Source of the DNA: Alphaproteobacteria bacterium | Lineage (GTDB): Bacteria > Pseudomonadota > Alphaproteobacteria > Bin95 | Length of the DNA: 64,000 bases | Assembly: GCA_963665325.3 (NCBI GenBank) | Contig: CAXXWS020000002.1 | Span: 704,001 to 768,000 of the forward strand | Direction: 5' to 3' | Part shown: piece after piece, positions 4,788 through 58,251 of the stretch | Layout of the letters: every line of letters begins with the position of its first letter | How positions within the stretch are numbered: the first letter of the stretch is position 1 | Made by a program: the position numbers and the translations under genes | The notes under the pieces: model-generated | Seen by the model: only the letters and a program-made list of their open reading frames with translations | Told to the model about the DNA's origin: nothing | Databases searched by the model: none

Positions 4788-5148
4788 CGCGAAAGCTCCT
4801 GTTCGGGATTGAGAGAAAGGCGGCTGACAAACGGTATCCGATCGGCCTGACGCAGGATGTGCAGGCCGGGCCGGGGGCGCAGCGGGATCGATAGGGTGGA
4901 GTGAGTGCGGTTCCGCCGAACGGCGCGTGGCGGCAAAAAACGAACTGCGGTTGGACCGGTCGCAGTGAGGCCGGGCGTCCGAATGCCGACAACTGCGCGG
5001 CAATATGTCCGTTCCGCCCAAGGCGAACGAAATACGGGACGCCGCCGTCTGCTACGGCGGCAAAGGGCTTCGGAAGGGAGGAGGTGCCGGTCTCGGCGAC
5101 CGGGAGTGCGGGACTGCCCTAGCGGGCTACAACATGCGCTGACATCAA

Positions 5149-5276
5149 GAGGCGCGAGGCGCGAGGCGCGAGGCGCGAGGCGCGAGGCGCGAGGCGCGAG
5201 GCGCGAGGCGCGAGGCGCGAGGCGCGAGGCGCGAGGCGCGAGGCGCGAGGCGCGAGGCGCGAGGCGCGAGGCGCGA
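5149..5276 (+). repeat. perfect 7-bp tandem repeat (GAGGCGC)x18 + GA
   Basis: Counted directly in the sequence. Confidence 0.95.
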
Positions 5277-5287
5277 TTCTACCCGCT

Positions 5288-5554
5288 ATGCCAACCGACA
5301 GCATCAAACCCTGTCGTCCCCTCTCTGACTTCGACTGGAATATAGTCAGCCTCTCCGGGCCGGCGCAAGCTCGAAGTGCCGTTAGCTTTGGGTTCGGGTT
5401 CACCGCCGCGGACGATGGCGGGCGCGAGGTGTTCGTCCATTACCGCGCCCTGTCGCGCGCCGGCCTGGAGATACTGGAACCCGGAGAGCGCGTGAGCTTC
5501 CGGATCGAAGAGGTCCCGCGCGGCCTTCAGGCCAGCGACATCGCGCCGGTCTGA
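5288..5554 (+). pseudogene. cold-shock domain (CspA-like) fragment lacking the canonical N-terminus
   Basis: FGF..DDGGREVFVHYRAL...LEPGERVSFRIEEVPRGLQASDI matches RNP1/RNP2 and the C-terminal CSD. GTVKWF is absent in frame. Confidence 0.6.
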
Positions 5555-5575
5555 CGCCGCCGGCGCCATTGTCCT

Positions 5576-6025
5576 TCAGAGCAGCTCGCCCTGCGGGCGG
5601 GGCTCCACGCCGGATGTCCCGGACTTCTCCGGCTCCTCCGGCGCCAGGGCCGCGGCGACCCGCTTCGCAGCCGCTTCGCCGACCGCAGGCGCCAGGACCG
5701 CGCACAACTCCGCCGCCCGGCCCGAAGCGGCAAGCTCGCCCGCCCAGGCGGCAAACAGCACGGCAAGCCGCTCATGCAGCCCGGAGCGCAAAATGCCGCG
5801 ACCGCTCTTCCCGGACAGAAAGGGCCGCAGATGGCGCACGGCCTCCAGCAGGCCGCGTTCGCCCTCGAGCGTCCGGCCCCCCGCCTCCGCCAGCGCCGCG
5901 TCCACAAGATAGCGCGAGATCGATTTCCCCTGCCCCCGCGCCCGGTCTTCCGCCAGCGCCCATTCCTCGTCCGTCGCCGAGATCGAAAGCCGCACAAGCG
6001 CCGAACCGGGCAGCGGGCGGCTCAT
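5576..6025 (-). CDS. ribbon-helix-helix (CopG/MobC-like) DNA-binding protein
   Basis: RLSISATDEEWALAEDRARGQGKSISRYLVDAAL has an RHH pattern. Start overlaps the upstream stop (ATGA). Confidence 0.65.
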   Translation of the reverse strand: MSRPLPGSALVRLSISATDEEWALAEDRARGQGKSISRYLVDAALAEAGGRTLEGERGLLEAVRHLRPFLSGKSGRGILRSGLHERLAVLFAAWAGELAASGRAAELCAVLAPAVGEAAAKRVAAALAPEEPEKSGTSGVEPRPQGELL

Positions 6026-6422: not shown

Positions 6423-6642
6423 ATTGTGGCGTAACAGCACAAGATTGTCGACCTTATGGCGCAACGACACAAGCCCGGCGCCTCCATGCACGACGATGCA
6501 GAGACTTTATGGTGTTGCGCCATAAGAGCGCCGGTCTTGTGGCGTGGCAACACAAGACCCGCTCCGTTTATGGCGCAATGACACAAGACATCCTTATGGC
6601 GCAGCACCATAAGGCGGCAGGCTTGTGGCGCAACTACACAAG
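6423..6642. repeat. array of 7 quasi-palindromic sites TTRTG-N9-CAYAA (about 30-bp period)
   Basis: Cores start at 6424, 6454, 6507 (inverted), 6537, 6568, 6594 and 6623. Confidence 0.85.
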
Positions 6643-12725: not shown

Positions 12726-13478
12726 ATGCGTATCCATTCCGAAGAACTGGGCGGGCATGTGACCCTCGTGCGGATAGAGAACGAGGCGCGCCGCAACGCC
12801 ATGACGCGCGCGATGATGGTGCGCCTCGCCGATCTCTGGGATGAGCTTGAGGCGGGGCCCACGCGCGCCATCGCGCTCACCGGAGCCGGGGACAAGGGGT
12901 TCTGCAGCGGCGCGGATGTGTCGGGAGACCTGTCGGCCTCGCCGGAGACGGCCGCAGCGGTCGCGCGCGCGCTGTTGAAGACGAAACGATATCGCAAACC
13001 GATTGTCGCAGCCGTCAACGGCGACTGCGTCGCCGGCGGGGTCGAACTGCTGATTTCGACCGACCTTCGGGCTGCCGCGCCGCATGCCCGCTTCGGGCTG
13101 CCCGAGGTGAAGTGGGGCATCTACCCGTTCGGCGGCGCGGCGACCAAGCTGGTGCGCCAGATCGGCTATGTGCACCTCATGGACATGATCCTGACCGGGC
13201 GTCTGCTGGATGCGGAGGAAGCGTGCGCCATCGGGCTTGTGAACGCCGTGGTTCCGGCCGGCGAGCTGCTCGACTGGGCGGTGGAAAAGGCGCGGCTGAT
13301 TGCCGCCAACAGCCCGGCAGCGGTTCAGGCGGTCAAGGAGCAGATCACTGCCGGGCTGGAGGAATGGACGCTCTCCCAGGAGCCGCGCGAACAGGCGCTG
13401 GGCGACCGGGTGCGCGCCTCTCCCGACTTTCCCGAAGGCGTCGCCGCATTCCTGGAGAAGCGCCGGCCGCAATATTAG
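12726..13478 (+). CDS. enoyl-CoA hydratase/isomerase
   Basis: FCSGAD, AAVNG..GGVEL, FGLPEV and EGVAAFLEKR motifs. Confidence 0.92.
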   Translation: MRIHSEELGGHVTLVRIENEARRNAMTRAMMVRLADLWDELEAGPTRAIALTGAGDKGFCSGADVSGDLSASPETAAAVARALLKTKRYRKPIVAAVNGDCVAGGVELLISTDLRAAAPHARFGLPEVKWGIYPFGGAATKLVRQIGYVHLMDMILTGRLLDAEEACAIGLVNAVVPAGELLDWAVEKARLIAANSPAAVQAVKEQITAGLEEWTLSQEPREQALGDRVRASPDFPEGVAAFLEKRRPQY

Positions 13479-13555
13479 CCCTCCGCCCCATGGACCTTGG
13501 GGTTCGCCTGCGCCATATGTTTGCCCCATTCGGCAGTCCGCCGCTAAGGTCGCGC

Positions 13556-15979
13556 ATGATGGAACTTCTGCAATATATCGACCGGCGCCCGGAGCCTCGC
13601 GAGGCGCTGGCGCTTGCCGAATGCGGCGATCTGGAAGGTTTGATGGATGCGGCGGCGCGGTTGCGCGACCGGCTGCACGGGCCGCGTATCAGCTATTCGC
13701 GCAAGGTCTTCATCCCGCTGACGCATCTCTGCCGGGATGTCTGCCATTACTGCACCTTCGCCAAGCCGCCGCGCCGTGGCGAGGCTGCATACATGACACC
13801 GGATCAGGTGTTGGAAATCGCTCGGGCCGGGGCGGCTGCGGGCTGCAAGGAGGCGTTGTTCACGCTCGGCGACAAGCCGGAACGGCGCTACCGCGCGGCG
13901 CGCGAGGCGCTGGCCGAACTCGGTTACGAATCGACCCTCGACTACCTCAAGGCCATGGCGCAGCTGGTGTTCGAGGAAACCGGCCTGTTGCCGCACCTGA
14001 ATCCGGGCCTGATGACGGCGGAAGAGCTTGCGGAGCTTCGCGGCGTTTCGGCCTCGATGGGCATCATGCTGGAAAGCGCCTCGGACCGGCTCTGCGAAAA
14101 GGGCATGCCCCACTACGGCTCGCCCGACAAGGTACCGGCGCGCCGGCTTGAGACCATCCGGCTCGCGGGCGACGCAAGTGTCCCGTTCACCTCCGGCATC
14201 CTGATCGGCATCGGCGAGACACGGCGCGAGCGCATCGAGGCACTGCTGGCGCTGCGCGATATCGACGACGCCACCGGCGCGGTGCAGGAGATCATCGTCC
14301 AGAACTTCCGCGCCAAGCCCGACACGAAGATGGCCGCCGCGCCGGAGCCGGACGCCGAGGAACTGCTCTGGACGATTGCGGCCGCGCGGCTGATCTTCGG
14401 CCCGGCCGCTTCGATCCAGGCGCCGCCGAACCTCTCGCCGGGCGCGCTCGGGCCCATCGTGGCGGCAGGCATCGACGACTGGGGCGGCGTGTCGCCGGTG
14501 ACGCCGGATTTCGTCAATCCGGAAGCGCCCTGGCCGCATCTGGAGACGCTCGCACGCGAGACCGCGAAGGCCGGCAAGCAGCTGGTGGAGCGCCTCACGG
14601 CCTATCCGCGCTACCTCAACGATGAATGGCTGGCGCCGCCGCTGCTGACCCGCGCATTGCAGCTTTCGGACGCCGGGGGTCTGGCGCGGCCGGACGACTG
14701 GTCGCCCGGTGAGTTGACTGTGCCTGCGCCGATCCCGCGGCGGGGCGCGGCGAGCGCCGATGTCGAGACGATCCTTGCGGATGCGGAGGCGGGCGCGCCG
14801 CTCGACGAAGCCGGGATCGTGCGCCTGTTCGAGGCGCGCGACGACGATTTCCATGCCGTGGCGGAAGCCGCCGACCGGGTGCGGGCGCAGCTTGCAGGCG
14901 ACACCGTCACCTATGTGGTGAACCGCAACATCAACTACACCAATGTCTGCTACTTCAAATGCCAGTTCTGCGCCTTCTCGAAGGGCAAGCTTTCCGAGAA
15001 CCTGCGCGGACGCCCCTACGACCTGGACCTCGACGAAATCCGCCGCCGCGTCGCCGAGGCCTGGGACCGGGGGGCGACAGAGGTCTGCATGCAGGGCGGC
15101 ATCCATCCTGACTACACCGGCCAAACCTATCTCGACATTCTGGACGCGGTGAAGGCGGCCGCGCCCGACATCCACGTCCACGCCTTCACGCCGCTCGAAG
15201 TGTTCCAGGGCGCGCATACACTCGGCATTTCCGTCGAGGCCTTCCTGCGCGACCTGAAGGCGGCGGGCCTCGGCACCCTGCCGGGCACGGCTGCGGAAGT
15301 GCTCGACGATGAGGTGCGGCGCATCATCTGCCCGGACAAGATCGACACTCAGCAATGGCTGGATGTCATGGAGACGGCGCACGGTCTCGGTATTCGGTCC
15401 ACGACGACGATCATGTACGGCCATGTCGAGCGGCCGGTGCATTGGGCGCGCCACCTCCTGCGGTTGCGCAATCTCCAGGCGCGCACAGGCGGCTTCACCG
15501 AATTCGTGCCGCTGCCCTTCGTCCACATGGAAGCGCCGATCTACCTGAAGGGGCGGGCGCGCAAGGGGCCGACCTTCCGGGAAGCGGTGCTGATGCATGC
15601 GGTGGCGCGCCTCGCACTCGCGCCGCATTTCGTCAATATCCAGACCTCCTGGGTCAAGATGGGGCCGGAAGGCGTTTCGGCGGCCCTGGCGGCCGGCGCG
15701 AACGATCTCGGCGGCACGCTGATGAACGAGAGCATCACCCGCGCCGCCGGCACGGTTCACGGACAGGAAATGGCCCCGCACCGCATGGAGGAAACCATCC
15801 TGGCGGCCGGGCGCCGGCCGGTCCAGCGCACCACGGATTACGGCCGCCCGCCGGAAATCCAGATCCTGCGCTCCCGCCAGGCCGCGCCGCTCGCGGACAT
15901 CGTGGAGACCCCGGCGCGCAAATACGAACGCACCGCCCCCCGCACCCTCTACCGCCCGGGTTTGACGGCCGCGGAGTAG
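13556..15979 (+). CDS. fbiC: bifunctional FO synthase CofG-CofH (F420 precursor biosynthesis)
   Basis: Two radical-SAM CX3CX2C motifs (CRDVCHYC; CYFKCQFC), plus YSRKVFIPLT, NRNINYTN and GANDLGGTLMNESI. Confidence 0.92.
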   Translation: MMELLQYIDRRPEPREALALAECGDLEGLMDAAARLRDRLHGPRISYSRKVFIPLTHLCRDVCHYCTFAKPPRRGEAAYMTPDQVLEIARAGAAAGCKEALFTLGDKPERRYRAAREALAELGYESTLDYLKAMAQLVFEETGLLPHLNPGLMTAEELAELRGVSASMGIMLESASDRLCEKGMPHYGSPDKVPARRLETIRLAGDASVPFTSGILIGIGETRRERIEALLALRDIDDATGAVQEIIVQNFRAKPDTKMAAAPEPDAEELLWTIAAARLIFGPAASIQAPPNLSPGALGPIVAAGIDDWGGVSPVTPDFVNPEAPWPHLETLARETAKAGKQLVERLTAYPRYLNDEWLAPPLLTRALQLSDAGGLARPDDWSPGELTVPAPIPRRGAASADVETILADAEAGAPLDEAGIVRLFEARDDDFHAVAEAADRVRAQLAGDTVTYVVNRNINYTNVCYFKCQFCAFSKGKLSENLRGRPYDLDLDEIRRRVAEAWDRGATEVCMQGGIHPDYTGQTYLDILDAVKAAAPDIHVHAFTPLEVFQGAHTLGISVEAFLRDLKAAGLGTLPGTAAEVLDDEVRRIICPDKIDTQQWLDVMETAHGLGIRSTTTIMYGHVERPVHWARHLLRLRNLQARTGGFTEFVPLPFVHMEAPIYLKGRARKGPTFREAVLMHAVARLALAPHFVNIQTSWVKMGPEGVSAALAAGANDLGGTLMNESITRAAGTVHGQEMAPHRMEETILAAGRRPVQRTTDYGRPPEIQILRSRQAAPLADIVETPARKYERTAPRTLYRPGLTAAE

Positions 15980-16070: not shown

Positions 16071-16307
16071 CTCATCCTGAGTAGCCGCAAAGCGGCATAT
16101 CGAAGGGCGCCACCCCGAGACCTCTCTCCGCCAGGCCGCCTCCCACACCTCTTTCGTCGCCCCCGCGAAGGCGGGGGCCCATCCCTGACTCCCGATGCTG
16201 CCGCAGCCGGTGGAGAGTGGGTCGAACCGCCGAATTTGTCGCGAGAACCGAGGCTGGGCCCCGGCTTCCCCGCTCGGGGGCGAGGACAGGCGGGGTCCGG
16301 GGCGACG
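16071..16307. repeat. alphaproteobacterial REP/RPE-like palindromic elements
   Basis: CTCATCCTGAGTAGCCGCAAAGCGGC..TCGAAGG at 16071-16107. CGTCGCCCCCGCGAAGGCGGGGGCCCA at 16155 pairs with TGGGCCCC...GGGGCGACG ending at 16307. Confidence 0.65.
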
Positions 16308-16592
16308 GTTGGGGTCGCGCAGTGTGGAGCCACGACGAGCGGATGCGTGAATCCGGTAGCGCCCGAGCCGGGGCCTTGTGTGGCCGGAGCCCTGTTGCAG
16401 CGAGGCCCGGCTGACGACAAGGGCCGCGCAGTCCGAAGCCGCCAGGGATGCGTGCATGCGGTAGCCCGCTCGCGGGAGGCGGGAGGAGCCTTCCGCCGGC
16501 AATCGTCATGGGTTCCGATCCATGGCCGCCGGTATTGCCGATCCTTACCCGCGGCCGTTGGCATGACTGCATGTTCGTATACTTTGAAATAA

Positions 16593-16911
16593 TTCCCAGA
16601 ACAGGGCTTGTGTTCTGGGAAGTCGTGCTACAATGGCTCCGAGGGAAGCGGTATCCATGGTCCGCTTCCCGTCTCCCTGGCCCGGCGCCGGAACGACCCC
16701 GATTCAGCAGACAGGCGAAGTGCGCCCTCCGGCTCGCGCGCGCAATCAGGCGCGCGAACCGCGCCGGCGCCGACGCCCGCCCGCGCCCGCCCGCGATACG
16801 CGCGAAACAGGGTCGCTCCGGAGACGGGCCGGGGTGACGACTGTGGTTCGGGCCTGAAATCGGGTTCGACTCGAAAGAATGTAAACGGAATGAAAGGAGC
16901 CGCCGCGCCCC
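16593..16911 (+). other. copy A of dispersed conserved non-coding module (promoter-like motif + structured leader)
   Basis: Homologous to the reverse complement of 57883-58200, with a 32-nt identical core at 16740-16771. TTGTGT-N15-TACAAT with TGn extension. 11-bp IR at 16593-16621. Confidence 0.75.
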
Positions 16912-17892
16912 ATGCCCATCATCCAACCCGCCGTTGCCCTGTCCACACGCCAGGAGGCCTTCTGCCGCCACTATGCGGTCTCCGGCAATGCCGCAGACGC
17001 TGCAAGGCAGGCCGGCTATTCCGGGCGCTCCGCCCGCCAGACCGGATGCGCCCTATTGGAACGGCCCTACATTGTGGAGCGCCTGCGGCGCATCCGCCTG
17101 TCGTGGAAGCGCACCGAGCGGGACGAGGCCCGCATCCTGCTTGCCCGGCTGGAGCAGGCGTGGGACGCGGCCGTCGCCAGCGGCTCGGCTTACACGATGC
17201 TCCGGGTGCTGCGCTTCCAGGCCGAGATTGCAGGGCTTACGGGGCCGACGGCCGCGCGCCGTGCGGGGCTCTGGCCGCTGCCGCACGAGGACGAGTTCGG
17301 CGAGATCGAGGCCGGCGAGGCTCAGGAGGCGGGCACCGAGCCGGGGCCGCTCTCCGAGGCCGTGCGCAGCGGCCTCGACCGCGCCCGATGCGCGCTCGCG
17401 CGGCACCGTGACTGCCGGGAGGAGATGGAAGCGCAGGAGGGCTTCGACGGGGCCGCGCACGAGGAGGTTGCCCGCAGGCTCGCCGGGGCCGTCGAGGAAC
17501 GCGAGCGGCTCCCTGTCTGTTTCGAGCCGCCCGCACCGGCTTCGCCCGGAGACCGGCCCCCCGCCGACGACCCGCCCGAGGAGACCTACGAGGACTGCCC
17601 GTGGGCAGGCGGCGAAGGGTCCGGCGACGAGGACAGGATCGACAGTGACCGGGCCGACGGCGCCGAACATGACTGGCTCTACCAGCGCCGCAACGGCTAC
17701 GCCGAAATCTACGACCCCTGGGCCCCGGAGGAGGTCGAGGAGCGAACGCGGAACCGCCTCGATCGGGAAGAGCGGGGCGGCGGAGAAGACGATGACTGGA
17801 GTGGACCGGCGACCAGAAAGAAGAAGAAAAAGAAGGGAAAGAAGACCGCGCCCGAGGGCGCCGGCTCCGCGCCGGACCATGACATCTCGTGA
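16912..17892 (+). CDS. solo terminase-small-subunit-like HTH protein with acidic/disordered C-terminus
   Basis: LSTRQEAFCRHYAVSGNAADAARQAGYS..SARQTG..LL..P.I matches the TerS (PF03592-type) N-terminal HTH pattern. AAAGGAG RBS. No terL or portal gene nearby. Confidence 0.75.
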   Translation: MPIIQPAVALSTRQEAFCRHYAVSGNAADAARQAGYSGRSARQTGCALLERPYIVERLRRIRLSWKRTERDEARILLARLEQAWDAAVASGSAYTMLRVLRFQAEIAGLTGPTAARRAGLWPLPHEDEFGEIEAGEAQEAGTEPGPLSEAVRSGLDRARCALARHRDCREEMEAQEGFDGAAHEEVARRLAGAVEERERLPVCFEPPAPASPGDRPPADDPPEETYEDCPWAGGEGSGDEDRIDSDRADGAEHDWLYQRRNGYAEIYDPWAPEEVEERTRNRLDREERGGGEDDDWSGPATRKKKKKKGKKTAPEGAGSAPDHDIS

Positions 17893-17904
17893 CATTCCAT
17901 GACA
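17878..17904 (+). repeat. 10-bp-phased CATGACA repeats (3 copies)
   Basis: CATGACA 17878, CGTGACA 17888, CATGACA 17898. Confidence 0.8.
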
Positions 17905-17999: not shown

Positions 18000-18329
18000 T
18001 TAACCGAGCAATTCCACCGGCTCGTCGAGCGGGTGGCGGCCTTCGCGGTCTTCTATTTCGAGCACCCAGATGTCGGGGTCGCGGGCGGCCTCGCGGGCAA
18101 TTTCCTCGTCGGCGTCGGCCTCCGGGCCCGGCGGGTGGGCGAGCCAGCGGCGGCGGTCCCCGTCGGTCCAGGCCGGGCGGAGGAGTTGCGCCGTGCCGTC
18201 GAGGCGGTTGAGCTTGAGCAGCACTGCGCCCGCCCCGTCGAAGCCGCGCCGCGCTACCTGCGCCGGGCAGCCGCGAACCGTTGCCGCCCGGATGCAGGCC
18301 TGGATATAGACGCGAGCCGTCAGCGCCAA
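18000..18329 (-). CDS. DUF1491 family protein
   Basis: RRGFDGAGAVLLKL and DPDIWVLEIEDREGRH motifs. Confidence 0.85.
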   Translation of the reverse strand: MALTARVYIQACIRAATVRGCPAQVARRGFDGAGAVLLKLNRLDGTAQLLRPAWTDGDRRRWLAHPPGPEADADEEIAREAARDPDIWVLEIEDREGRHPLDEPVELLG

Positions 18330-18343
18330 GGCAGCGCCGCGCC

Positions 18344-19219
18344 TCAGGCGTGTCCGGGCACGATGTGCCGGGCGGGCGAGGGCCGGAAGGTCGCGCGCTT
18401 CAGCCAGCGGTTTTCCGTCGGGTCGAAATCGTCCCGCCGATGAAGCAGGAAGCCATTGTCCCAGAGCACGGTGTCGCCAACCTCCCAGTCATGCCGATAG
18501 ACGAAGCGGGGCTCGGTCGCATGCGCGATCAGGCGGTCGAGCAGGGCGCGACCCTCTCCCGCGTCCATGCCGTCTATCCCGGACATGGTGCCGGGGTCGA
18601 GATAGAGCGCCTTGCGCCCCGTCACCGGGTGGGTATGCACCAGCGGGTGGGTGACGTCGGGCGTGCGCCGGCGGATGTCGTCTTCCGCCATCTTGTCGAT
18701 TTCGCCGTAGCCGGCCACGCGCACGGCATAGCTGAAAACGCCCCGCCGCCCCTCGATCTCGGCCTTGAAGCCTTCGTCGAGCGCGTCGTAGGCGGCTTCG
18801 AGATTGGCCCAGCAGGTGGGTGCGCCGCCGGCCGGCGTCTCGACGCAGTAAAGCAGGGACCCCGTGGCCGGATTGGCCATGTAGGACTGGTCGGTATGCC
18901 AGGCGAGCTCGCCCTGGCCGATACCGCCGATGGTGTTGCCGCCGGGGCCTCGCATATTGGAGATGTAGGTGATCTCGGGCTGGTATTTCGACGCCCAGTC
19001 CTCCCGCACGATCAGCTCCAACGCGCCGAACCAGGAAGCGGCCTTCGCAAGCTCGGCTTCCGAGAGCGCCTGCCGGCGGAAAACCAGCACGCCGTGTGCG
19101 GCAAGCGCGGTATCCAGCGCCTCGCGGGTTTCCTCGTCCGGGTGCTCGTGCAGTGCCATGCCCTCCACGATCCTCGCGAAGCCGTTTTCGGCAGGTCTGA
19201 ATGTCAGCATGGCCGTCAA
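18344..19219 (-). CDS. TauD/TfdA family Fe(II)/2-oxoglutarate dioxygenase
   Basis: WHTD, HPLVHTHPVTGRKALY, HDWEVGD..WDN...HRR motifs. Confidence 0.9.
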   Translation of the reverse strand: MTAMLTFRPAENGFARIVEGMALHEHPDEETREALDTALAAHGVLVFRRQALSEAELAKAASWFGALELIVREDWASKYQPEITYISNMRGPGGNTIGGIGQGELAWHTDQSYMANPATGSLLYCVETPAGGAPTCWANLEAAYDALDEGFKAEIEGRRGVFSYAVRVAGYGEIDKMAEDDIRRRTPDVTHPLVHTHPVTGRKALYLDPGTMSGIDGMDAGEGRALLDRLIAHATEPRFVYRHDWEVGDTVLWDNGFLLHRRDDFDPTENRWLKRATFRPSPARHIVPGHA

Positions 19220-20157
19220 AGCTCCTTCAACAGCGCCTCGATATCGTCCGGGCTCTCGACCGCGACGCCGGACATCTCCCGGTCGATGCGCCTGACCAGC
19301 CCGGAGAGCACCTTGCCGGTGCCGAGCTCGACCACGCGGTCGATGTCGTTCTCGCGCATGAACATCATACTCTCCCGCCAGCGAACGGTCGCCGTCACCT
19401 GGCGCACGAGGAGGTCAGGCAGGTCGGCGGCGCCTTCCACCGGGCGCGCCGTCACATTGGCAACCAGCGGCACCGAAGGGTCTTCCATATCGACAGAGAC
19501 CAGGGCCTCCGCCATGGCGTCGGCGGCGGGTTGCAGCAGCGAGCAATGGAAGGGCGCACTTACATCGAGCATGATCGCCCGGCGCGCGCCCCGCGCCTTC
19601 GCCAGTTCCACCGCGCGTTCGACGGCAGCGCAGTCGCCGCTCACCACGACCTGGCCGGGAGCGTTGTCGTTGGCCGGATCGCAAACCTCGTTTTCTGCCG
19701 CCTCGCGGGCAACTTCCTCCACCTGCTCGAAATCGAGGCCGAGCAGCGCCGCCATTGCGCCGGCGCCTACAGGCACGGCGCTCTGCATCGACTGCCCGCG
19801 CAGCTTCAGAAGGCGCGCGGTATCGGCGAGCCGGAAAGCTCCGGCCGCAGTCAACGCCGAATACTCACCAAGCGAATGACCCGCCAGATAGAGGCAGGCC
19901 GAGGGCAGGGAAACGCCGCCCTCGCGCTCCAGCACCCGCATGACGGCCATGCTGTGCGCCATCAGCGCCGGCTGCGCGTTCTCCGTCAGGGTCAGTTCGT
20001 CGCCGGGGCCTTCGAACATCAGCCGCGAGAGACCTTGTCCGAGGGCGTCATCTACCTCCTCGAACACCTCCCGCGCGGCCGCCGAAGCCTCCGCCAGCGC
20101 CCGGCCCATGCCGACCGCCTGCGCCCCCTGTCCCGGAAAGACGAAAGCTCGTGCCAC
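19216..20157 (-). CDS. fabD: malonyl CoA-ACP transacylase
   Basis: FVFPGQG, GHSLGEY, VSAPFHC and VRWRES motifs. Confidence 0.95.
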   Translation of the reverse strand: MARAFVFPGQGAQAVGMGRALAEASAAAREVFEEVDDALGQGLSRLMFEGPGDELTLTENAQPALMAHSMAVMRVLEREGGVSLPSACLYLAGHSLGEYSALTAAGAFRLADTARLLKLRGQSMQSAVPVGAGAMAALLGLDFEQVEEVAREAAENEVCDPANDNAPGQVVVSGDCAAVERAVELAKARGARRAIMLDVSAPFHCSLLQPAADAMAEALVSVDMEDPSVPLVANVTARPVEGAADLPDLLVRQVTATVRWRESMMFMRENDIDRVVELGTGKVLSGLVRRIDREMSGVAVESPDDIEALLKEL

Positions 20158-20303
20158 GAACCCCTCCCGATGCCCGGTCAACGAAGTGCAATCAAGGCGG
20201 GGCCGCAGAGAGTGTCAAGGGCGCATTCCGGCGGCTTGCGCGCATTGCGGGTTCGTGTATAACCCCGGCCCCAGTGCAACTTTCGGGACGAAACGCATCG
20301 GCA

Positions 20304-20735
20304 ATGGCTCTTTACGAGAATGTCTTCATAGCGCGTCAGGACATGTCGCCCGCACAGGTGGAGACCCTGGCGGACGAATATGTGTCCGTCATGGAGTCCC
20401 TCGGCGGCAAGGTCGAGAAGCGCGAACATTGGGGCCTCAAGACCCTGGCTTACCGGATCAAGAAGAACCGCAAGGGCCATTACGTCCTCTTCAATTTCGA
20501 TACGAACGGCGACGCGGTGGCTGAACTCGAGCGGCGGATGCGCCTGTCGGAAGACGTGCTGCGGTACCTGACCGTGCGGATCGAGGCCGTCGACGAGCGG
20601 CCTTCCGTGATGCTTCAGGCCCGGCCGCGCGACGACCGCGGCCGGCGCGACGCGCGCCCGCGCCGGGATACCGAGGAGAGGAAACCGGAAGGCGCCGGCG
20701 AGCAGCCTGCCGCCGCAGTGGAGGCCGCCCAATGA
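20304..20735 (+). CDS. rpsF: 30S ribosomal protein S6
   Basis: [25 protein letters not shown] and EDVLRYL motifs. Confidence 0.97.
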
Positions 20736-20968
20736 ACGCTGCACCGCGCCGCCCCTTTTTCCGACGCCGCAAGAGCTGCCCCTTCTCCGGGCCCAATGCG
20801 CCCGAGATCGACTACAAGGATGTGAAGCTGATGCAGCGGTTCCTGTCGGAACGCGGCAAGATCGTGCCCAGCCGCATTACCGCCGTCTCGGCAAAGAAAC
20901 AGCGCGAACTGGCGCAGGCGATCAAGCGTGCGCGCTTCATGGCGCTGTTGCCCTACGTCGTAAAGTAG
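20732..20968 (+). CDS. rpsR: 30S ribosomal protein S18
   Basis: [18 protein letters not shown] and [13 protein letters not shown] motifs. Confidence 0.98.
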
Positions 20969-20996
20969 GTCCAGGACTGCCGCCCGCGCGGATTGG

Positions 20997-21938
20997 ATGG
21001 GAAAGGATCTCATCCTCCTGACCGTCGGCGGGCTGGCCGCAGGCGCGCTCTTCGGTTCCATCGTCGCCGGCTCTCTGGGTGCGGCCCTGCTGGCCTATTT
21101 CGCCGCAGCGCCGCTGTTCCTTGTGGGCCTGTCCCTGGGTTGGCTGCCGGTTGTCGCCTCGGCACTCGTCGGCGCGGCTGTGGTGGCCGGGATCGTCGGT
21201 TTTTTCGCTGCCGGCTATTTCGCTCTCATTATCGGCCTTCCAGTAGCCGTGTTGTGCCGACAGGCCCTGCTGAACCGCACCGACGGGCGGGGCGGTGTCG
21301 AATGGTATCCGCCCGGTCGCCTCGTCGCGGCGCTCACCGCCATGGCGGCTGCAGCTCTCCTGGCGATGTTCTCCGTCGCCGTTCTCGAAGGCGTGGATCC
21401 GCGACAGGAAGTGCAGCAGACGATCGAGGCGGTTCTGGACGCCGGGATGCCGCCCGAAATCGCCGAGCGCGCCAAGGAACAGGGTCTGGCAGTGCGGGCG
21501 GCATCCTTCCTGCCGGGCATTGCCGCGGCGCTGCTTTTCCTGACACTGGCGCTGGACGGCGTGCTCGGCCAGGCCATCGCCGCGCGCCTGAGTATCGCGA
21601 GGCGCCCCTCGCCTCCGTGGCGCGATATGACGCTGCCGGCCTGGCCGTTGTACGCGCTCGGCCTTTCCTGTCTTGCCGGGATTGCCGCAAGCGGAGCGCT
21701 GGAGTATATCGGCCGCAATCTGGCTATCGTCTTCGCCGTTCCGTTCCTGCTGCAGGGGCTTGCTGTCGTCCATGCCGTGGCGGCCCGGCTGCCGGGGCGG
21801 ACGGTCTGGCTGGTCGGTTTCTATCTGCTGGGGCTCCTGATGGCCTGGCCATTCGTGCTGGTCGCAGCGCTGGGCCTTGCGGAGCCTTATGTCGGTCTGC
21901 GCGCCCGTTTCGGGGGCGGTCCGAAGGAGAGTGAGTAA
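20997..21938 (+). CDS. DUF2232 (YybS-like) membrane protein
   Basis: Multi-TM protein with EWYPPGRL and LQGLAVVH, in the conserved position between rpsR and rplI. Confidence 0.85.
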   Translation: MGKDLILLTVGGLAAGALFGSIVAGSLGAALLAYFAAAPLFLVGLSLGWLPVVASALVGAAVVAGIVGFFAAGYFALIIGLPVAVLCRQALLNRTDGRGGVEWYPPGRLVAALTAMAAAALLAMFSVAVLEGVDPRQEVQQTIEAVLDAGMPPEIAERAKEQGLAVRAASFLPGIAAALLFLTLALDGVLGQAIAARLSIARRPSPPWRDMTLPAWPLYALGLSCLAGIAASGALEYIGRNLAIVFAVPFLLQGLAVVHAVAARLPGRTVWLVGFYLLGLLMAWPFVLVAALGLAEPYVGLRARFGGGPKESE

Positions 21939-22564
21939 TGGAGCTGGTCCTTCTCGAACGGGTCGAGAGCTTGGGGCTGATGGGCGATATCGTCACGGTC
22001 AAGCCCGGATACGCGCGGAACTACCTGCTGCCCCAGAAGAAGGCGCTGCGCGCGACGCCCGAGAACATGGCCGTTTTCGAGACGCGCCGCGCGGAGCTGG
22101 AAGCACGCAACCTGGAGCGGAAGGGTGAGGCCGAAGGTGTTGCCGGGAAGCTGGAAGGCTTCAGCGTCACGCTGATCCGCCGCGCCGGCGACACCGGACA
22201 TCTCTACGGGTCGGTCACGGTGCGCGACATCGCCGAGGCGGCCAGCGAGGCGGGCGTCGAGATCGATCGTCGGCAATTGCGGCTCGCGCAACCGATCAAG
22301 TCGCTCGGCCTGCACGATATCGCGGTCCAACTGCATCCTGAGGTCCAGGTACCGATCACCGCCAATGTCGCCCGCACGCTCGATGAGGCGGAGGCGCAGG
22401 CGCGCGGCGAGGATGTGCTGGCGATGGACGACGAGGACGCTTATCGTTTCGAGAGCGGACTGTCGGAGTTCTTCGACGACGGCGGATCGGAGCGCGACGG
22501 AGAGGCCCGGGCTGAAGCCGGCGAGGCCGAACCGGCCGGGGAAGAACCGGGCGAGGTAAGCTAG
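21938..22564 (+). CDS. rplI: 50S ribosomal protein L9
   Basis: VKPGYARNYLLPQKKA, LYGSV and PIKSLG motifs. Confidence 0.97.
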   Translation: MELVLLERVESLGLMGDIVTVKPGYARNYLLPQKKALRATPENMAVFETRRAELEARNLERKGEAEGVAGKLEGFSVTLIRRAGDTGHLYGSVTVRDIAEAASEAGVEIDRRQLRLAQPIKSLGLHDIAVQLHPEVQVPITANVARTLDEAEAQARGEDVLAMDDEDAYRFESGLSEFFDDGGSERDGEARAEAGEAEPAGEEPGEVS

Positions 22565-22615
22565 GGGTTCGTTGCCCGCTGGCTGCGGCGGGAGGCGGGA
22601 GGGAGAGCAGGGCCG

Positions 22616-23818
22616 ATGCTGTTCGCGCCGTTGTTACGCCGGCTCGTCAAATTCGGTACGCTGACCGTAATAGACCCGCGCGGCGGCTCACACAGCATAG
22701 AAGGCGCGGGCGGGCCTTCGGTCGCCATCCGCCTGCACGATAGCTCGGTGAGCCGGGGGTTGATCCGCAATCCGGCTCTTGCCATTGGCGAGGCCTATAT
22801 GTCCGGGCGGCTGACGGTTGAGCAGGGCACGCTGTTCGATTTCCTCACCATTCTGGTGGTCAACCGCCGCGAGGCCCTTCTCGGTCGTTCCAAGGGTCCT
22901 GCGGCCATCGGGCGAAAGCTCATGGGCCGGTTGCGGACGCACAACCCGGTTGGCACGGCGCGTCGCAAGGTATCGCACCATTACGACCTGAAGCCGGAAC
23001 TGTTCGATCTGTTCCTGGACAGCGACCGTCAATATAGCTGCGCCTATTTCGCCTCGGACAATGACGACATCGAGACGGCGCAGCGGCGCAAGAAGACGCA
23101 TCTTGCGGCGAAGCTGCTGCCGCGTCCGGGGGACCGGGTTCTGGACATCGGCTCGGGCTGGGGCGGTCTGGGGCTTTATCTGGCGCAGGAAGCGGACGTG
23201 GATGTGACGGGCGTGACGCTCAGCCACGAGCAGCATGAGCTGTCGAACGCGCGCGCGGCGGAGGCGGGGTTATCGGAGCGTGTGCGCTTCAAGCTGCAGG
23301 ACTACCGGGAGGAGACGGGCCGCTACGAGCGGATCGTTTCGGTGGGGATGCTGGAGCATGTGGGTCTGGGGCATTATCGCGAGTTTTTCGGGAAGGTTCG
23401 CGATCTGCTGACGGATGACGGCGTTGCGGTTGTGCACACCATCGGCCGCTACGACACGCCGGGCCCGGTCAACCCGTGGATCGCCCGCTACATCTTTCCG
23501 GGCACCTATGTGCCGACGCTTTCGGAGCTGATGCCCGCGATAGAGGAGCAAAACCTTCTGGTGACGGACATAGAGGTATTGAAACGCCACTATGCGAAGA
23601 CGCTCAGGGCGTGGCGGGACCGTTTCGTTTCGAACCGGGACCGGGCTCGCGCGATGTATGACGAGCGTTTCTGCCGTATGTGGGAGTTCTACCTCACTGC
23701 CTGCGAGGTCGGCTTCCTGTCGAAGGAGCTCAATGTCTTCCAGATCCAGCTTGCAAAGGATCTGGATGCGGTGCCGGAGACGCGGGACTATATCCACGCC
23801 TTCGAGGCGGCGCACTGA
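22616..23818 (+). CDS. cfa: cyclopropane-fatty-acyl-phospholipid synthase family SAM methyltransferase (copy 1)
   Basis: HHYDL, QYSCAYF, LDIGSGWG, VSVGMLEHVG, YIFPG and RMWEFYL motifs. Confidence 0.9.
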   Translation: MLFAPLLRRLVKFGTLTVIDPRGGSHSIEGAGGPSVAIRLHDSSVSRGLIRNPALAIGEAYMSGRLTVEQGTLFDFLTILVVNRREALLGRSKGPAAIGRKLMGRLRTHNPVGTARRKVSHHYDLKPELFDLFLDSDRQYSCAYFASDNDDIETAQRRKKTHLAAKLLPRPGDRVLDIGSGWGGLGLYLAQEADVDVTGVTLSHEQHELSNARAAEAGLSERVRFKLQDYREETGRYERIVSVGMLEHVGLGHYREFFGKVRDLLTDDGVAVVHTIGRYDTPGPVNPWIARYIFPGTYVPTLSELMPAIEEQNLLVTDIEVLKRHYAKTLRAWRDRFVSNRDRARAMYDERFCRMWEFYLTACEVGFLSKELNVFQIQLAKDLDAVPETRDYIHAFEAAH

Positions 23819-23869
23819 CGGGCGCCGGGATGGCCTAGCGCGGCCGGAAAGCCGGGGAGGGCACGGCTC

Positions 23870-25072
23870 ATGCTCTATCTGCCGTTTTTGCGCCGGTTCG
23901 TCGAAGTCGGGGTGCTGACGGTCATCGACTCGAACGGCGCCGCACACCGTCTGGAAGGCGGGGAAGGCCCGTCGGCGACAGTGCGCCTGCACGACGCTTC
24001 AGTCGCGCGCGCCATGTTCCGGAATCCGGCGCTTGCTGTTGGCGAGGCCTATATGGACGGGCGCCTGACGGTCGAGGAGGGCACGCTGTTCGACTTCCTC
24101 ACCATCGCTCTTGTCAATCAGCGCCGCGCTCGGCTACGGAGCGATTCCGGTGTCCTGGACTTCGCACGAAGGCTTATGGGCCGGTTGCGGACGCATAACC
24201 CGGTTGGCGCGGCGCGTCGCAAGGTATCGCACCATTACGACCTGAAGCCGGAACTGTTCGATCTGTTCCTGGACAGCGACCGTCAATATAGCTGCGCCTA
24301 TTTCGCATCCGACAACGATGACATCGAGACGGCGCAGCGGCGCAAGAAGACGCATCTTGCGGCGAAGCTGCTGCTGCGTTCGGGGGACCGTGTTCTGGAC
24401 ATCGGCTCGGGCTGGGGCGGTCTGGGGCTTTATCTGGCGCAGGAAGCGGACGTCGATGTGACGGGCGTGACGCTCAGCCACGAGCAGTATGAGCTTTCGA
24501 ATGCGCGTGCGGTGGAGGCCGGCCTTTCCGAGCGGGTTCGATTCGGGCTCCGGGACTACCGCGAGGAGACGGGCCGTTACGAGCGGATCGTTTCGGTGGG
24601 GATGCTGGAGCATGTGGGTCTGGGCCACTACCGGGAGTTTTTCGGGAAGGTCCGGGAGCTTTTGACGGACGACGGGGTTGCGGTTGTGCACACCATTGGC
24701 CGCTATGACATGCTTGGCCCGGTCAACCCCTGGATTACTCGCTACATTTTTCCGGGCGGATACCTGCCGACCCTCTCGGAACTGATGCCTGCAATAGAGG
24801 AGCAAAACCTTCTGGTGACGGACATAGAGGTATTGAAGCGCCACTATGCGAGGACGCTCAGGGCGTGGCGGAACCGTTTCGTTTCGAACTGGGACAAGGC
24901 GCGCGCGATGTATGACGAGCGCTTCTGCCGTATGTGGGAGTTCTACCTCGCCTCCTGCGAGGTCGGTTTCATGCACAATATCGTGACCGTATTCCAGATC
25001 CAGCTTGCGAAAGACCCGGACGCCGTGCCGGAGACGCGGGACTACATTCACGACTACGAGGCCGCGCACTGA
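23870..25072 (+). CDS. cfa: cyclopropane-fatty-acyl-phospholipid synthase family SAM methyltransferase (copy 2)
   Basis: Same motifs; near-identical paralog of the preceding gene. Confidence 0.9.
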   Translation: MLYLPFLRRFVEVGVLTVIDSNGAAHRLEGGEGPSATVRLHDASVARAMFRNPALAVGEAYMDGRLTVEEGTLFDFLTIALVNQRRARLRSDSGVLDFARRLMGRLRTHNPVGAARRKVSHHYDLKPELFDLFLDSDRQYSCAYFASDNDDIETAQRRKKTHLAAKLLLRSGDRVLDIGSGWGGLGLYLAQEADVDVTGVTLSHEQYELSNARAVEAGLSERVRFGLRDYREETGRYERIVSVGMLEHVGLGHYREFFGKVRELLTDDGVAVVHTIGRYDMLGPVNPWITRYIFPGGYLPTLSELMPAIEEQNLLVTDIEVLKRHYARTLRAWRNRFVSNWDKARAMYDERFCRMWEFYLASCEVGFMHNIVTVFQIQLAKDPDAVPETRDYIHDYEAAH

Positions 25073-25515
25073 TGGATGCCGGGCAGATGGCGAGCGCTGC
25101 CGATGCGCTGGCCCGGCGCGTCTCCGACGCCATGTACGGGCAGGACGATGCGTCGCGGAATCTCGGCATCCGGCTGGAGGCGGTCGGCGCCGGCTGGGCC
25201 CGCATGTCGATGCCGGTGACCGACAACATGCTGAACGGCCATCGCGTTTGCCACGGCGGCTACATCTTTTCGCTCGCCGATTCGGCCATGGCCTTCGCGA
25301 GCAACAGCCGCAACCGGGTCTCCGTGGCGCAATTCTGCTCCATTACCTTCCTGCGTCCCGGCCGGGCGGGCTGCCTGCTGTTGGCCGAGGCGCGGGAGCA
25401 GGCGGACGCCGGGCGCACCGGCATGTATGCCGTCGAGGTGCGTGAGGACGGCGGCGAGGTCCTCGCCGTGTTCTCGGGCGCGGTCCGCCGCCTGGGGGAA
25501 CGAACCATCGTCTGA
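25072..25515 (+). CDS. paaI: hydroxyphenylacetyl-CoA thioesterase PaaI family
   Basis: MLNGHRVCHGGYIFSLADSA.AFASNS hot-dog motif. Confidence 0.85.
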   Translation: MDAGQMASAADALARRVSDAMYGQDDASRNLGIRLEAVGAGWARMSMPVTDNMLNGHRVCHGGYIFSLADSAMAFASNSRNRVSVAQFCSITFLRPGRAGCLLLAEAREQADAGRTGMYAVEVREDGGEVLAVFSGAVRRLGERTIV

Positions 25516-54426: not shown

Positions 54427-54622
54427 CCTGGAATCCTCTCTACGCCGTTGTGCAATATGCCTGCCGGCACCCGGAGACGAAACCGGCGCACCCATCATCC
54501 GTTTGCCGCAGCAATATCATCCCCCTGACACCGCTTTGCAGGGCTTCGCGGCTTGCGCCTCCTCCATTTACGCACTTATGGTTATGCAGGATCGATTCGG
54601 GTCCGGTTGCAGGGAGGGTGTT

Positions 54623-55186
54623 GTGACGCCGCCTGTGGAGAGCGCGCCGACGCTGGTGCTCAATGCGGATTTCCGCCCGTTGAGCTATTTCCCGCTGTCG
54701 CTCTGGTCGTGGCAGGAGAGCATCAAGGCCGTGTTCCTCGACCGGGTGCAGGTGCTGGCGGAATACGAGCGCGAGGTGCGCTCGCCGACGCGCGCCATGC
54801 GGCTGCCCTCCGTCATCGCGCTCCGGGACTATGTAGCGCCGGCCCGCCACCCGGCCTTCACGCGGTTCAACGTGTTCCTGCGCGACCGCTTCGGCTGCCA
54901 GTATTGCGGCTCGCGGCTGCCGCCCGAGGACCTGACCTTCGATCATGTGCTGCCGCGTTCGCGCGGCGGGCGCACGGGCTGGACCAATGTCGTGGCCGCC
55001 TGCGGTCGCTGCAACCGCGCCAAGGGCGACCGGTTGCTCCGCGATTCCGGCATGCGCCTGCAGGCGGAGCCGGTGCGCCCGAGCGTCTGGCGCCTCCAGG
55101 AGAACGGGCGCCGGTTCCCGCCCAATTTCCTGCACGAAAGCTGGTCCGACTTCTTGTACTGGGACAGCGAACTCGAACAGGGCTGA
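54623..55186 (+). CDS. HNH endonuclease (McrA-like, conserved alphaproteobacterial family)
   Basis: LVLNADFRPLSY.PLS, FTRFNVFLRD..CQYCG, TFDHV.PRSRGG and C..CN..KG motifs. Confidence 0.9.
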   Translation: MTPPVESAPTLVLNADFRPLSYFPLSLWSWQESIKAVFLDRVQVLAEYEREVRSPTRAMRLPSVIALRDYVAPARHPAFTRFNVFLRDRFGCQYCGSRLPPEDLTFDHVLPRSRGGRTGWTNVVAACGRCNRAKGDRLLRDSGMRLQAEPVRPSVWRLQENGRRFPPNFLHESWSDFLYWDSELEQG

Positions 55187-56532: not shown

Positions 56533-56569
56533 TGTCATGAATTGTCATGTTTCGTTATGCGATGTCATG
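56533..56569 (-). repeat. 10-bp-phased CATGACA repeats (4 copies, one degenerate)
   Basis: TGTCATG at 56533, 56543 and 56563; CGTTATG at 56553. Confidence 0.8.
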
Positions 56570-56643
56570 GGGCTGCCTGCGCAGGGCGCGTGTCCCGCGT
56601 CCGTTTTCGACATGCCATTCCTGCTCCTTCGCCTTCCGGAATC

Positions 56644-57626: not shown

Positions 57627-57753
57627 GTCCTGTCCTCTCCCGTTCGAGCCGCCCCCTGAGCGGCAACCGTTTCGATAGAAGCACATTTCGATTCAGGCTC
57701 GAAATCCCCGCCCCGGCCCCGGCCTGCCGCCGAGCGGGGAAGCCCTCCGGATA

Positions 57754-58200
57754 TGTCATGGGATGTCATGTTTTGTCATGCGCAGGGTTCGTATGCTGCG
57801 GCCGGGCCGGGCCTGCAGCGGCCGTTTCGGTCCGGTGCTCCGGGTATTTGGTCCGGTTTTTCCGGCTTCCGGTTTCCGGCATCGGTCTCTCCTTTCGATC
57901 CGTCTTCGCTCCGTTTTCCCTGTGCCGGATGGGCCAGGCGGCGGGACCCTATTTTCGCGCGCAATCGCGCGCGGGCGGGCGGGTGCGTTGGCGCCGGCGC
58001 GGTTCGCGCGCCTGATTGCGCCTGTGTGCCCCCGCGCGCGAACCCGAGCGCAGGGCGCACCTTTCCTGTCCGCCCCCTCGGTGGTTTTTCGCGCCGGCGC
58101 CGGTGCGGGAGTGAGCGGCCTCCGGAAACCGCTCCCGGTCATTTGTTCTGGCTTTATTCTAACATACTTTGGCGAAACACAAGTCCTTCGCCGGCATTTT
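57754..58200 (-). other. copy B of dispersed module: promoter-like motif, structured leader, 38-aa ORF (57882-57766), 3 phased CATGACA repeats
   Basis: 32-nt core 57990-58021 is identical to 16740-16771 (reverse complement). TTGTGT-N15-TAGAAT. AAAGGAG RBS. TGTCATG at 57754, 57764 and 57774. Confidence 0.75.
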
Positions 58201-58251
58201 TCAAGAATTTTGGGGCTTATATATCAGTTTACCCGGACCGCCTCTCCGCGA

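Follow-up and report, generated by a model that had tools for sequence, protein, structure and literature searches.

The window considered here is the whole stretch of 64,000 nucleotides (nt) of Alphaproteobacteria bacterium contig CAXXWS020000002.1 (positions 704,001 to 768,000), with a composition of 67% G+C. It carries ordinary chromosomal genes, such as those for TctABC, an acyl-CoA dehydrogenase, ribosomal proteins S6 and L9, ABC transporters, PhoX, LpxB and a nitrile hydratase, together with two similar loci placed ~41 kb apart, copy A on the + strand and copy B on the − strand. Both loci belong to a family of self-contained modules that is restricted to one lineage and present in high copy number; a module measures ~0.45 kb, or 1.4 kb when a long cargo gene is present. 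In each module, an AT-rich block and an extended −10 promoter of the sigma-70 type, a 5′ stem-loop, a GC-rich leader, a ribosome-binding site with an open reading frame (ORF) slot, and one or more arrays of the heptamer CATGACA follow one another in this order.

The two copies and a third array in the window

Copy A has a radical-SAM CofH/FbiC-type gene (13112-15979) on one side and, on the other, a DUF1491 gene (18000-18329) that is convergent with it; genes for TauD, an acyltransferase and ribosomal protein S6 are also found nearby. Copy A opens on the + strand with an AT-rich upstream block (TGTTCG..TTTGAAATAATTC) and a promoter-like site of the sigma-70 type (16570..16636), the latter comprising a −35-like TTGTGT (16608-16613), a 15-nt spacer with TGc, and the −10 element TACAAT (16629-16634). 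The stem-loop H1, formed by GGGAAGCGG and CCGCTTCCC (16643..16670, +) and recognised by covariation, is placed at the beginning of a leader (16637..16911, +) that would constitute a 5′ untranslated region of ~275 nt. This leader contains CCGGCGCCGG, GACAGGCGAAGTGCGCCCT, the block CGATACGCGCGAAACAGGGTC and the invariant core GCGCAATCAGGCGCGCGAACCGCGCCGGCGCC (16740..16771, +), which is identical to the reverse complement of positions 57990-58021. A Shine-Dalgarno (SD) sequence, AAAGGAG (16893..16899, +), precedes the cargo ORF (16912..17892, +), which encodes a terminase-like protein of 326 amino acids (aa) and presents a G+C fraction of 0.85 at third codon positions. The stop codon of this ORF is overlapped by an array, CATGACA tct CGTGACA ttc CATGACA (17878..17904, +), to which the search pattern was matched with 0 mismatches.

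Copy B, entirely on the − strand, presents the same organization. Its upstream block and promoter-like site (58156..58222) include TTGTGT (58182-58177), a 15-nt spacer with TGt, and TAGAAT (58161-58156), and are followed by a leader (57883..58155) harboring the H1 hairpin (58136-58113) and the core (58021-57990). An SD-led ORF of 38 aa (57766..57882; MPETGSRKNRTKYPEH...HDKT), which belongs to a subfamily named here MPKT, has its stop codon in the second unit of an array of three perfect units, CATGACA aaa CATGACA tcc CATGACA (57754..57780). A co-oriented epimerase-family gene (56721-57686, −) lies downstream.

The seven ordered parts that a sequence-only reading of this DNA had attributed to both loci were all found in place upon inspection of the sequence, including CCGGCGCCGG and GACAGG..A.GTGCGCCCT, which are present in A and B alike. 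The leaders of the two copies are collinear over ~300 nt, with a single 19-nt indel in the alignment, and a repeat search ranked A/B first among the inverted repeats of the window, with a match of 76 nt at 82%. The first 26 nt of the core matched the window twice and the three-unit array pattern (≤3 mismatches) four times, against 0 expected for each in 100 shuffles. A leader profile searched with nhmmer recovered copy A (16570-16831, E 3.2e-63) and copy B (58222-57903, E 1.3e-50), and these were the only two leaders in the window. A match of 39 nt with 74% identity (GGCTTCCCCGCTCGG...) was also observed between 16263-16301, ~340 nt upstream of the copy A promoter, and 57706-57744, immediately 3′ of the copy B array; the ~600 nt between the FbiC-type gene and copy A gave no family match.

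A third array was revealed by pattern search between the epimerase-family gene and an enolase-family gene (56533-56569, −). It consists of four units, one of them degenerate (CATGACA tcg CATAACG aaa CATGACA att CATGACA), and the leader profile search found no leader upstream of it. An SD-led mini-ORF of 17 codons precedes it (region 56533..56618, −), with its ATG at 56618-56616 and its TGA (56567-56565) in the first unit.

A dispersed family with a variable ORF slot

The first 26 nt of the core were found as an exact match in at least 91 stretches of at least 13 assemblies from a collection of species-representative genomes, with lower bounds per assembly of 20, 17, 11, 10, 9, 9, 5, 4, 2, 1, 1, 1 and 1. 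All the listed source assemblies are metagenome-assembled genomes labelled Alphaproteobacteria or Rhodospirillales, except for one contig labelled Bryobacterales, and the family is a possible marker for this lineage. The sequence-only reading had proposed a dispersed element with variable cargo from two loci only, and both the dispersal and the modular build around a variable ORF slot were borne out across the copies. The family also causes breaks in short-read assemblies, since many copies are situated at contig ends.

The copy set (n = 93) comprised the 91 listed loci, which had been picked by the exact core, and the window's two. The flanks were unrelated between copies. A same-strand array of at least two units was found downstream of the core in 78 of the 93 copies; among the 15 copies devoid of an array, 14 have at most 623 nt stored downstream, and a single one (L042) has 1800 nt without an array. 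Conversely, the exact core was found at most 1700 nt upstream of 90 of the 96 array groups detected in the 719,850 bases of loci, an association that is biased by the choice of loci by their core. Modules are dispersed singly, and tandem sets are rare exceptions, as observed in L022 (5853-6874, −), where four core-small ORF-array modules are placed in tandem ~300 nt apart behind one promoter. This locus is on the contig labelled Bryobacterales, unlike all other listed matches, and an RNase P RNA gene (5184-5583) adjoins the set; the latter was considered a neighbour and rejected as a part of the module.

In multi-copy alignments, similarity starts near the upstream block or the promoter, whose family consensus is TTGAC(A/T/C)-N15-TATGAT or TAGAAT with TGn. 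The promoter motif was recognised in 73 of the 91 copies that have 200 nt upstream, and it was preceded by TGn in 52. The hairpin H1 starts ~9-10 nt after the −10 element. Over 77 distinct rows, 85.6% of the H1 cells were paired, compared with 43-60% when the partner was slid by 1-3 columns, and both sides had changed in 7 of the 10 pairs, giving 48 such cells against 20.4±3.4 in shuffles, a value reached in 0 of 500 shuffles; the kinship of the copies inflates these covariation measures. On the sense strand, G.U cells (71) exceeded A.C cells (23), which fits an RNA made in the proposed direction.

Beyond H1, the GC-rich part of the leader, ~150-200 nt long and including the invariant core of at least 26 nt, is (GC)n-rich and nearly invariant. 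The leader of copy A is collinear with that of copy B and of 85 other copies, and the leader profile recovered 103 leaders, 10 of which lack the exact 26-mer. The z-scores of the minimum free energy were −2.81 for the leader of A and −0.95 for that of B, and a scan for covarying stacks in the leaders returned many competing GC pairings. The structured leader described in the sequence-only reading is supported by covariation for the 5′ hairpin, while the rest of the leader presents only an invariant GC-rich sequence. Construction of a full covariance model of the leader was dropped as uninformative, since the copies had been chosen by the exact core. The invariant core of 26-32 nt and the covarying hairpin indicate selection on the sequence itself.

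The leader corresponds to no described RNA family in Rfam 15, as the earlier reading had anticipated: no match reached the gathering score anywhere in the window, none overlapped a module in 18 loci, and relaxed searches of both copies (E up to 10) returned chance-level matches only (E 0.2 or more). Compared with a riboswitch or another cis-regulatory leader, covariation is seen here in H1 only, and the cargo and downstream genes lack a common function. The 22 co-oriented downstream genes examined were unrelated housekeeping genes with no theme, among which a CoA-transferase III occurred 3 times. The next gene shared the strand of the module 42 times and lay on the opposite strand 26 times, and none was found in 9 cases, as judged by a crude caller that also picks up spurious ORFs starting in arrays.

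One or two arrays are found per module, each with 2-5 CATGACA units at an exact 10-nt spacing. Perfect units numbered 374, against 36 expected from base composition, and pairs of perfect units were spaced by 10 nt in 183 cases, by 9 nt in 1 and by 11 nt in 1. Among 118 arrays, 45 have two units, 67 have three, 5 have four and 1 has five; AAA predominates in the first spacer and pyrimidines in the second. Many copies harbor a longer 3′ module, in which a small hairpin and GCAGAA are followed by an array of two units, then by a GGGGTCYCC block and finally by an array of three units. The near-exclusive spacing of 10 nt points to the helical repeat of DNA or to a rigid oligomer.

The sequence of the unit itself has consequences for reading frames, because TGA is retained in nearly all unit variants and each unit holds ATGA, so that three units put TGA and ATG in all three frames. 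With a TGA in every unit and a period of 10 nt, which equals 1 modulo 3, a stop inside a three-unit array is automatic. The sequence-only reading had stressed that the ORFs of A and B stop in the same register, in unit 2; this agreement is explained by automatic closure and is not a rule, since the stop unit varies over the family, falling in unit 1 in 20, unit 2 in 27 and unit 3 in 9 of the 56 ORFs scored.

The unit is also one base off the family −35 consensus CTTGACA (in the window, 16607-16613 compared with 17878-17884). A role of the units as −35 boxes was rejected: a promoter scanner did read ATGACA-16-GACAAT within the third array (56568-56541), but this was its one such call and most arrays have no −10 element at the right distance. 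An antisense promoter or Pho-box reading of the arrays was likewise discarded, as no consistent −10 was seen by eye.

A strong SD sequence is found ~95-150 nt after the core, and an SD-led ORF starting +60 to +260 after the core and ending in a unit was identified in 56 of 77 array-bearing copies. The slot was observed to hold three kinds of content. The first is the terminase-like protein, of 326 aa in the window and of 329 aa in five full copies from one other assembly; the second is an ORF of ~190 aa starting MT(A/V)..P, with shorter relatives of 61-149 aa; the third comprises peptides of 15-45 aa starting MTATDP, MPKT.SR...EYP or MQ(D/E). Copy B had been regarded as a possible internally deleted derivative of copy A, a proposal that does not hold, since its 38-aa ORF falls in the separate MPKT.SR...EYP subfamily, of which 17 copies were found. 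A genuine internal-deletion derivative of the terminase-like gene does exist in L060, where the ORF is reduced to 66 aa.

A homologous 3′ nucleotide module is read in different frames among copies, and the peptides are not conserved in frame, which suggests that selection acts on the nucleotides, and perhaps on the act of translation, rather than on the peptides. The 43 peptides of at most 60 aa are hydrophilic and basic, with a median grand average of hydropathy (GRAVY) of −1.45 and a median net charge of +3. The small ORF of a type I toxin-antitoxin system was therefore rejected as an explanation, because a hydrophobic membrane peptide would be expected. No Pfam, PADLOC or NCBIfam family was assigned to the cargo ORFs other than the terminase-like one (the NCBIfam search did not cover the 38-aa peptide), and the terminase-like protein, searched together with two other cargo ORFs, matched 0 defence families in PADLOC-DB.

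The terminase-like protein and proposed functions of the arrays

The terminase-like protein presents a helix-turn-helix (HTH) domain at residues ~9-80, remains helical to residue ~198, and ends in a conserved acidic tail with a K-rich patch. The HTH is of the SF6/SPP1 G1P type, as indicated by matches to Pfam Terminase_2 (4.6e-12, residues 11-80), to PHROG 51 (1.7e-13), and to the PDB entries 4zc3, 2cmp and 3zqp (E 0.003-0.01; 0.0032 for 4zc3). Phage proteins align to residues 7-122 only, whereas identity between the window protein and the five full-length copies of the other assembly is 81-83% and extends along the full length, including the acidic tail. A look-up in the Atlas returned only clusters of Terminase_2 proteins of 261-281 aa. 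In the AlphaFold monomer, whose mean predicted local distance difference test score (pLDDT) is 56, helices extend to residue 198 and the tail is disordered; a Foldseek search with the whole model against PDB gave no match at E 0.001 or better, and the single local match was to 4zc3 (TMt 0.73, root-mean-square deviation of 1.4 over 45 columns).

Self-association was also predicted. A model of four copies of residues 1-205 reached a score of 0.42, compared with 0.00 for the best control, with the interface on the helices at 59-110. The mark applied to such models was reached by 20 of 30 proteins solved as same-chain pairs and by 1 of 23 solved as single chains, and the runs shared at least 41% of contacts with a partner pLDDT of at least 56, although the 5-row alignment and the use of four copies differ from the calibration. 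Small-terminase rings have been solved, so the result may reflect likeness to those structures instead of binding.

We favour, tentatively and at distinctly less than even likelihood, a reading in which each module is a transcribed unit and an oligomer of the family's own terminase-like protein binds the array DNA. Each module would be transcribed from its own promoter into an RNA with a long leader, in which the 5′ hairpin would stabilise the transcript and the invariant core would act as a recognition site. The ORF slot would be translated up to the array, where the three frames are closed, and at the DNA level the array would offer a protein oligomer binding sites in phase with the helix. 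The best candidate for this oligomer is the HTH protein of the small-terminase type, the sole conserved protein carried by the family, which may bind the array at the 3′ end of its own gene as well as the arrays of modules devoid of such cargo, as a small terminase does at pac repeats. The family itself would have arisen by the copying of a defined unit, many copies being now inherited vertically.

The link between protein and arrays is suggested by three observations: the array overlaps the stop codon in all six full-length terminase-like copies, small terminases tend to meet direct repeats at their own gene, and self-association is predicted by the model. Three sets of direct repeats are described in the pac site of SPP1, at the start of the small-terminase gene (PMC4737164). 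If the terminase-like protein does bind the arrays, a phage DNA-recognition subunit would have been recruited to a chromosomal role, and the exact 10-nt lattice offers a ready-made binding assay. If the modules are transcribed, there would be up to 20 or more copies per genome of an unknown RNA and small-ORF unit in a clade known only from metagenomes, with a module core conserved more tightly than the neighbouring protein genes.

Several results weigh against this reading. Among the listed matches, terminase-like genes occur in only four sources (the window, one assembly with 6 copies, L052 and L060), and the assemblies with at least 17, 11, 9 and 9 copies have no terminase-like gene among the matches listed. 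Stand-alone genes resembling the terminase small subunit, outside any phage, were found on Skermanella plasmids (L001 2279-3582, L002 2264-3555 and L003 2965-3696), and no phased arrays were detected beside them; in two of these loci, the genes are paired in tandem, and genes for HlyD and a peptidase-domain ABC exporter follow closely. Moreover, the SF6 domain shows little specificity for its repeats (PMC4737164). With regard to transcription, a simple promoter scanner called the promoter of neither copy, which is attributed to the 15-nt spacer, and RNAalifold applied to 87 leaders returned 15 pairs in the region beyond H1, none of them compensatory. Covariation outside H1 is uninformative, because parts of the leader are invariant, partly from the selection by exact core, and because (GC)n-rich sequence allows alternative pairings. 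The core may also play its role at the DNA level. Finally, the exact 10-nt period gives stops and ATGs in all frames, with which a role in RNA or translation is equally compatible.

Such a role in RNA, which we judge rather unlikely, would make the arrays either a frame-independent stop-and-restart device or a phased site for an RNA-binding protein, and the modules regulatory RNAs or small-ORF genes. It would account for the ATGA of every unit, for the period of 1 modulo 3, and for the retention of TGA. A three-unit array also constitutes a 7-codon ORF (M-T-x-H-D-x-x-stop), often with its own GGAGG upstream, and ORFs of the MTKHDIS type are found in L011, L034, L041, L054, L076, L083 and L087. 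In addition, the arrays are always on the sense strand downstream of the leader, and the SD-led ORFs described above terminate in them. However, periods of 7, 8, 10, 11 and 13 nt would all close the frames, yet 10 nt is nearly exclusive (183 pairs against 1 and 1), and the two-unit arrays (45 of 118) cannot close all frames. The peptides, as noted, are not conserved in frame, and no candidate RNA-binding protein was identified.

To about the same degree, it is improbable that the family is a non-autonomous mobile element, similar to a miniature inverted-repeat transposable element (MITE) or a satellite, moved by a recombinase or transposase acting in trans, in which the CATGACA units would be subterminal binding sites and the promoter and ORF slot mere passengers. 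Many copies per genome lie at unrelated sites, with no rule in their orientation to the next gene, and recent paralogues have both ends defined. In the assembly with five full-length terminase-like copies (a sixth is truncated where its locus ends), these are 85-96% identical, and their similarity extends from ~40 nt upstream of the −35 element to directly after the last unit, which indicates that something copies a defined unit. Units end in ...ACA, and the left block often begins with TGTTC. Presence and absence differ between syntenic loci: in L078, which matches the window at 88% identity over the epimerase gene, copy B is missing and a full module with core follows this gene, at the site that in the window holds only the orphan third array. 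The number of units also differs at orthologous sites, for example between L032 and L054.

On the other hand, no terminal inverted repeat or target duplication was found at the ends of the five paralogues or in the 87-copy alignment, the arrays are at one end only, and no transposase is encoded inside the modules; the absence of terminal inverted repeats, target duplication and transposase had already been remarked from the two window copies and held in the copy alignments. In L089 (~3134-4800, +), an IS110-family transposase ORF of 310 aa lies between core and array and interrupts the module, the leader being evidently a target of, or tolerant to, insertion sequence (IS) integration. Only filled orthologous sites were found, with no empty site among the 63 elements that have both flanks, in loci that had been chosen for having the core. 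Six groups of copies keep both flanks across assemblies with 86-98% identity, and in L093, which is syntenic with window positions 18013-22543 (87%), the corresponding position is occupied by a terminase-like module (80%). Between assemblies, some copies are demonstrably retained at orthologous sites and others have been gained or lost. The invariant core and the covarying hairpin, which imply selection on the sequence itself, also speak against a mobile element of this kind. In L093, ~1.3 kb of extra DNA (4565-5892) separates the DUF1491 gene from the module, compared with 93 nt in the window, and may be an insertion.

A further reading is more speculative still and, in our estimation, quite unlikely: a domesticated small-terminase-like ring and dozens of chromosomal CATGACA arrays would form a genome-wide marking system, either as dispersed pac-like entry points for packaging or transfer of host DNA or as a new kind of roadblock regulon. 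Every site would then be accompanied by a structured RNA of a new class, its 32-nt core kept invariant across species.

Very unlikely is a reading in which a phage-derived particle (a gene transfer agent, for example) uses the arrays dispersed over the chromosome as pac-like sites for packaging or marking, the terminase-like protein being its domesticated recognition subunit. Such sites would agree with the HTH of small-terminase type, the modelled self-association and the many arrays per genome. The array falls within the 3′ part of the terminase-like gene, comparable to the position of SPP1 pac at terS (PMC4737164). The pac sites of P22 and P1 are likewise in or beside terS genes. However, no large terminase, portal or capsid gene was found near any copy examined, only residues 7-122 resemble phage proteins, and the promoter, leader and SD-led ORF slot would be left unexplained. 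A simple two-copy segmental duplication within the genome, to which the presence of only two leaders in the 64-kb window would be suited, is refuted by the exact 26-mer in at least 91 stretches of at least 13 assemblies amid unrelated flanks.

Comparison with known systems and other features of the window

No described element with a matching build was found in the Rfam, plasmid, phage and literature searches. When compared with plasmids by blastn, the two modules gave nothing or chance-level matches of 24-31 nt, and a search of phages for the array returned chance-level matches only (E 9). The literature search found no match to four exact array or core strings and no description by keyword, paper supplements not being covered.

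Among repeats, BOX, Correia/NEMIS, ERIC and REP/BIME are short, multi-copy, intergenic elements with ordered sub-modules, transcribable and hairpin-forming, and the spread of several of them is unexplained. Judged by general descriptions of these elements, the CATGACA family resembles them in being short, present in many copies, intergenic and built of ordered sub-modules, but adds a promoter of its own, an ORF slot that is led by a ribosome-binding site and holds up to a 326-aa gene, an invariant core of 26-32 nt, and phased heptamers with a 10-nt period; terminal inverted repeats were not seen in it. With a MITE or an insertion sequence, it shares the many dispersed copies and the differences in presence and absence, but not the inverted repeats and target duplication.

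Phage morons and integron gene cassettes are portable units with a variable ORF between conserved signals. Set against the general picture of both, the present modules have no phage or integrase context and no attC-like site, carry their own conserved leader, and are dispersed singly. The resemblance to the SPP1/SF6 small terminases lies in the N-terminal HTH and in the predicted self-association through the helices that follow it; the differences are the lack of phage or packaging context, the long conserved acidic tail, and the repeats at dozens of sites devoid of the gene. Direct repeats at the terminase gene are a further likeness to SPP1 and its pac (PMC4737164).

The closest parallel to the heptamer itself is the TAACTGA repeat of Beggiatoaceae, Cyanobacteria and Bacteroidetes, which is described as occurring in sets of 2-6 at many intergenic sites with no theme among neighbouring genes, as containing stop codons in its units, and as mostly placed a few nt upstream of start codons; its function is given as unknown, and regulator binding has been proposed (PMC4679880). 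By our own reading, TAACTGA units are contiguous, with a 7-nt period. In contrast, CATGACA units are 3 nt apart, with a 10-nt period, and go together with a conserved leader in modules whose 3′ end they occupy.

The Pho box, a PhoB site, consists of CTGTCAT direct repeats with an 11-bp period. The reverse complement of the CATGACA unit holds TGTCAT, as in the Pho-box consensus, and both are direct repeats approximately one helical turn apart, but the CATGACA period is 10 (183 pairs against 1 at 11, the usual Pho-box figure) and no rule was apparent in orientation or position relative to genes. Since the family fails a defining feature of each of these candidate families, it was classed under the general term interspersed modular repeat, its content being unusual for that class.

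Other features of the window were also noted. An HNH endonuclease gene and a DNA methylase-domain gene (54503-55186 and 61220-62632) lie within a few kb of copy B, and, as the unit contains the palindrome CATG, a methylation link to the arrays is conceivable. Two 49-nt arms with 71% complementarity, made of TTGTGGCG...CACAA palindromes, were found at 6424-6555 and may represent an operator cluster. An intergenic perfect tandem repeat of the 7-nt GAGGCGC, in ~18 copies, occupies 5121-5295, and a tandem duplication with a period of 1254 nt (22601-25083) comprises two genes for 400-aa methyltransferases of the cyclopropane-fatty-acid-synthase type, 73-95% identical by segment.

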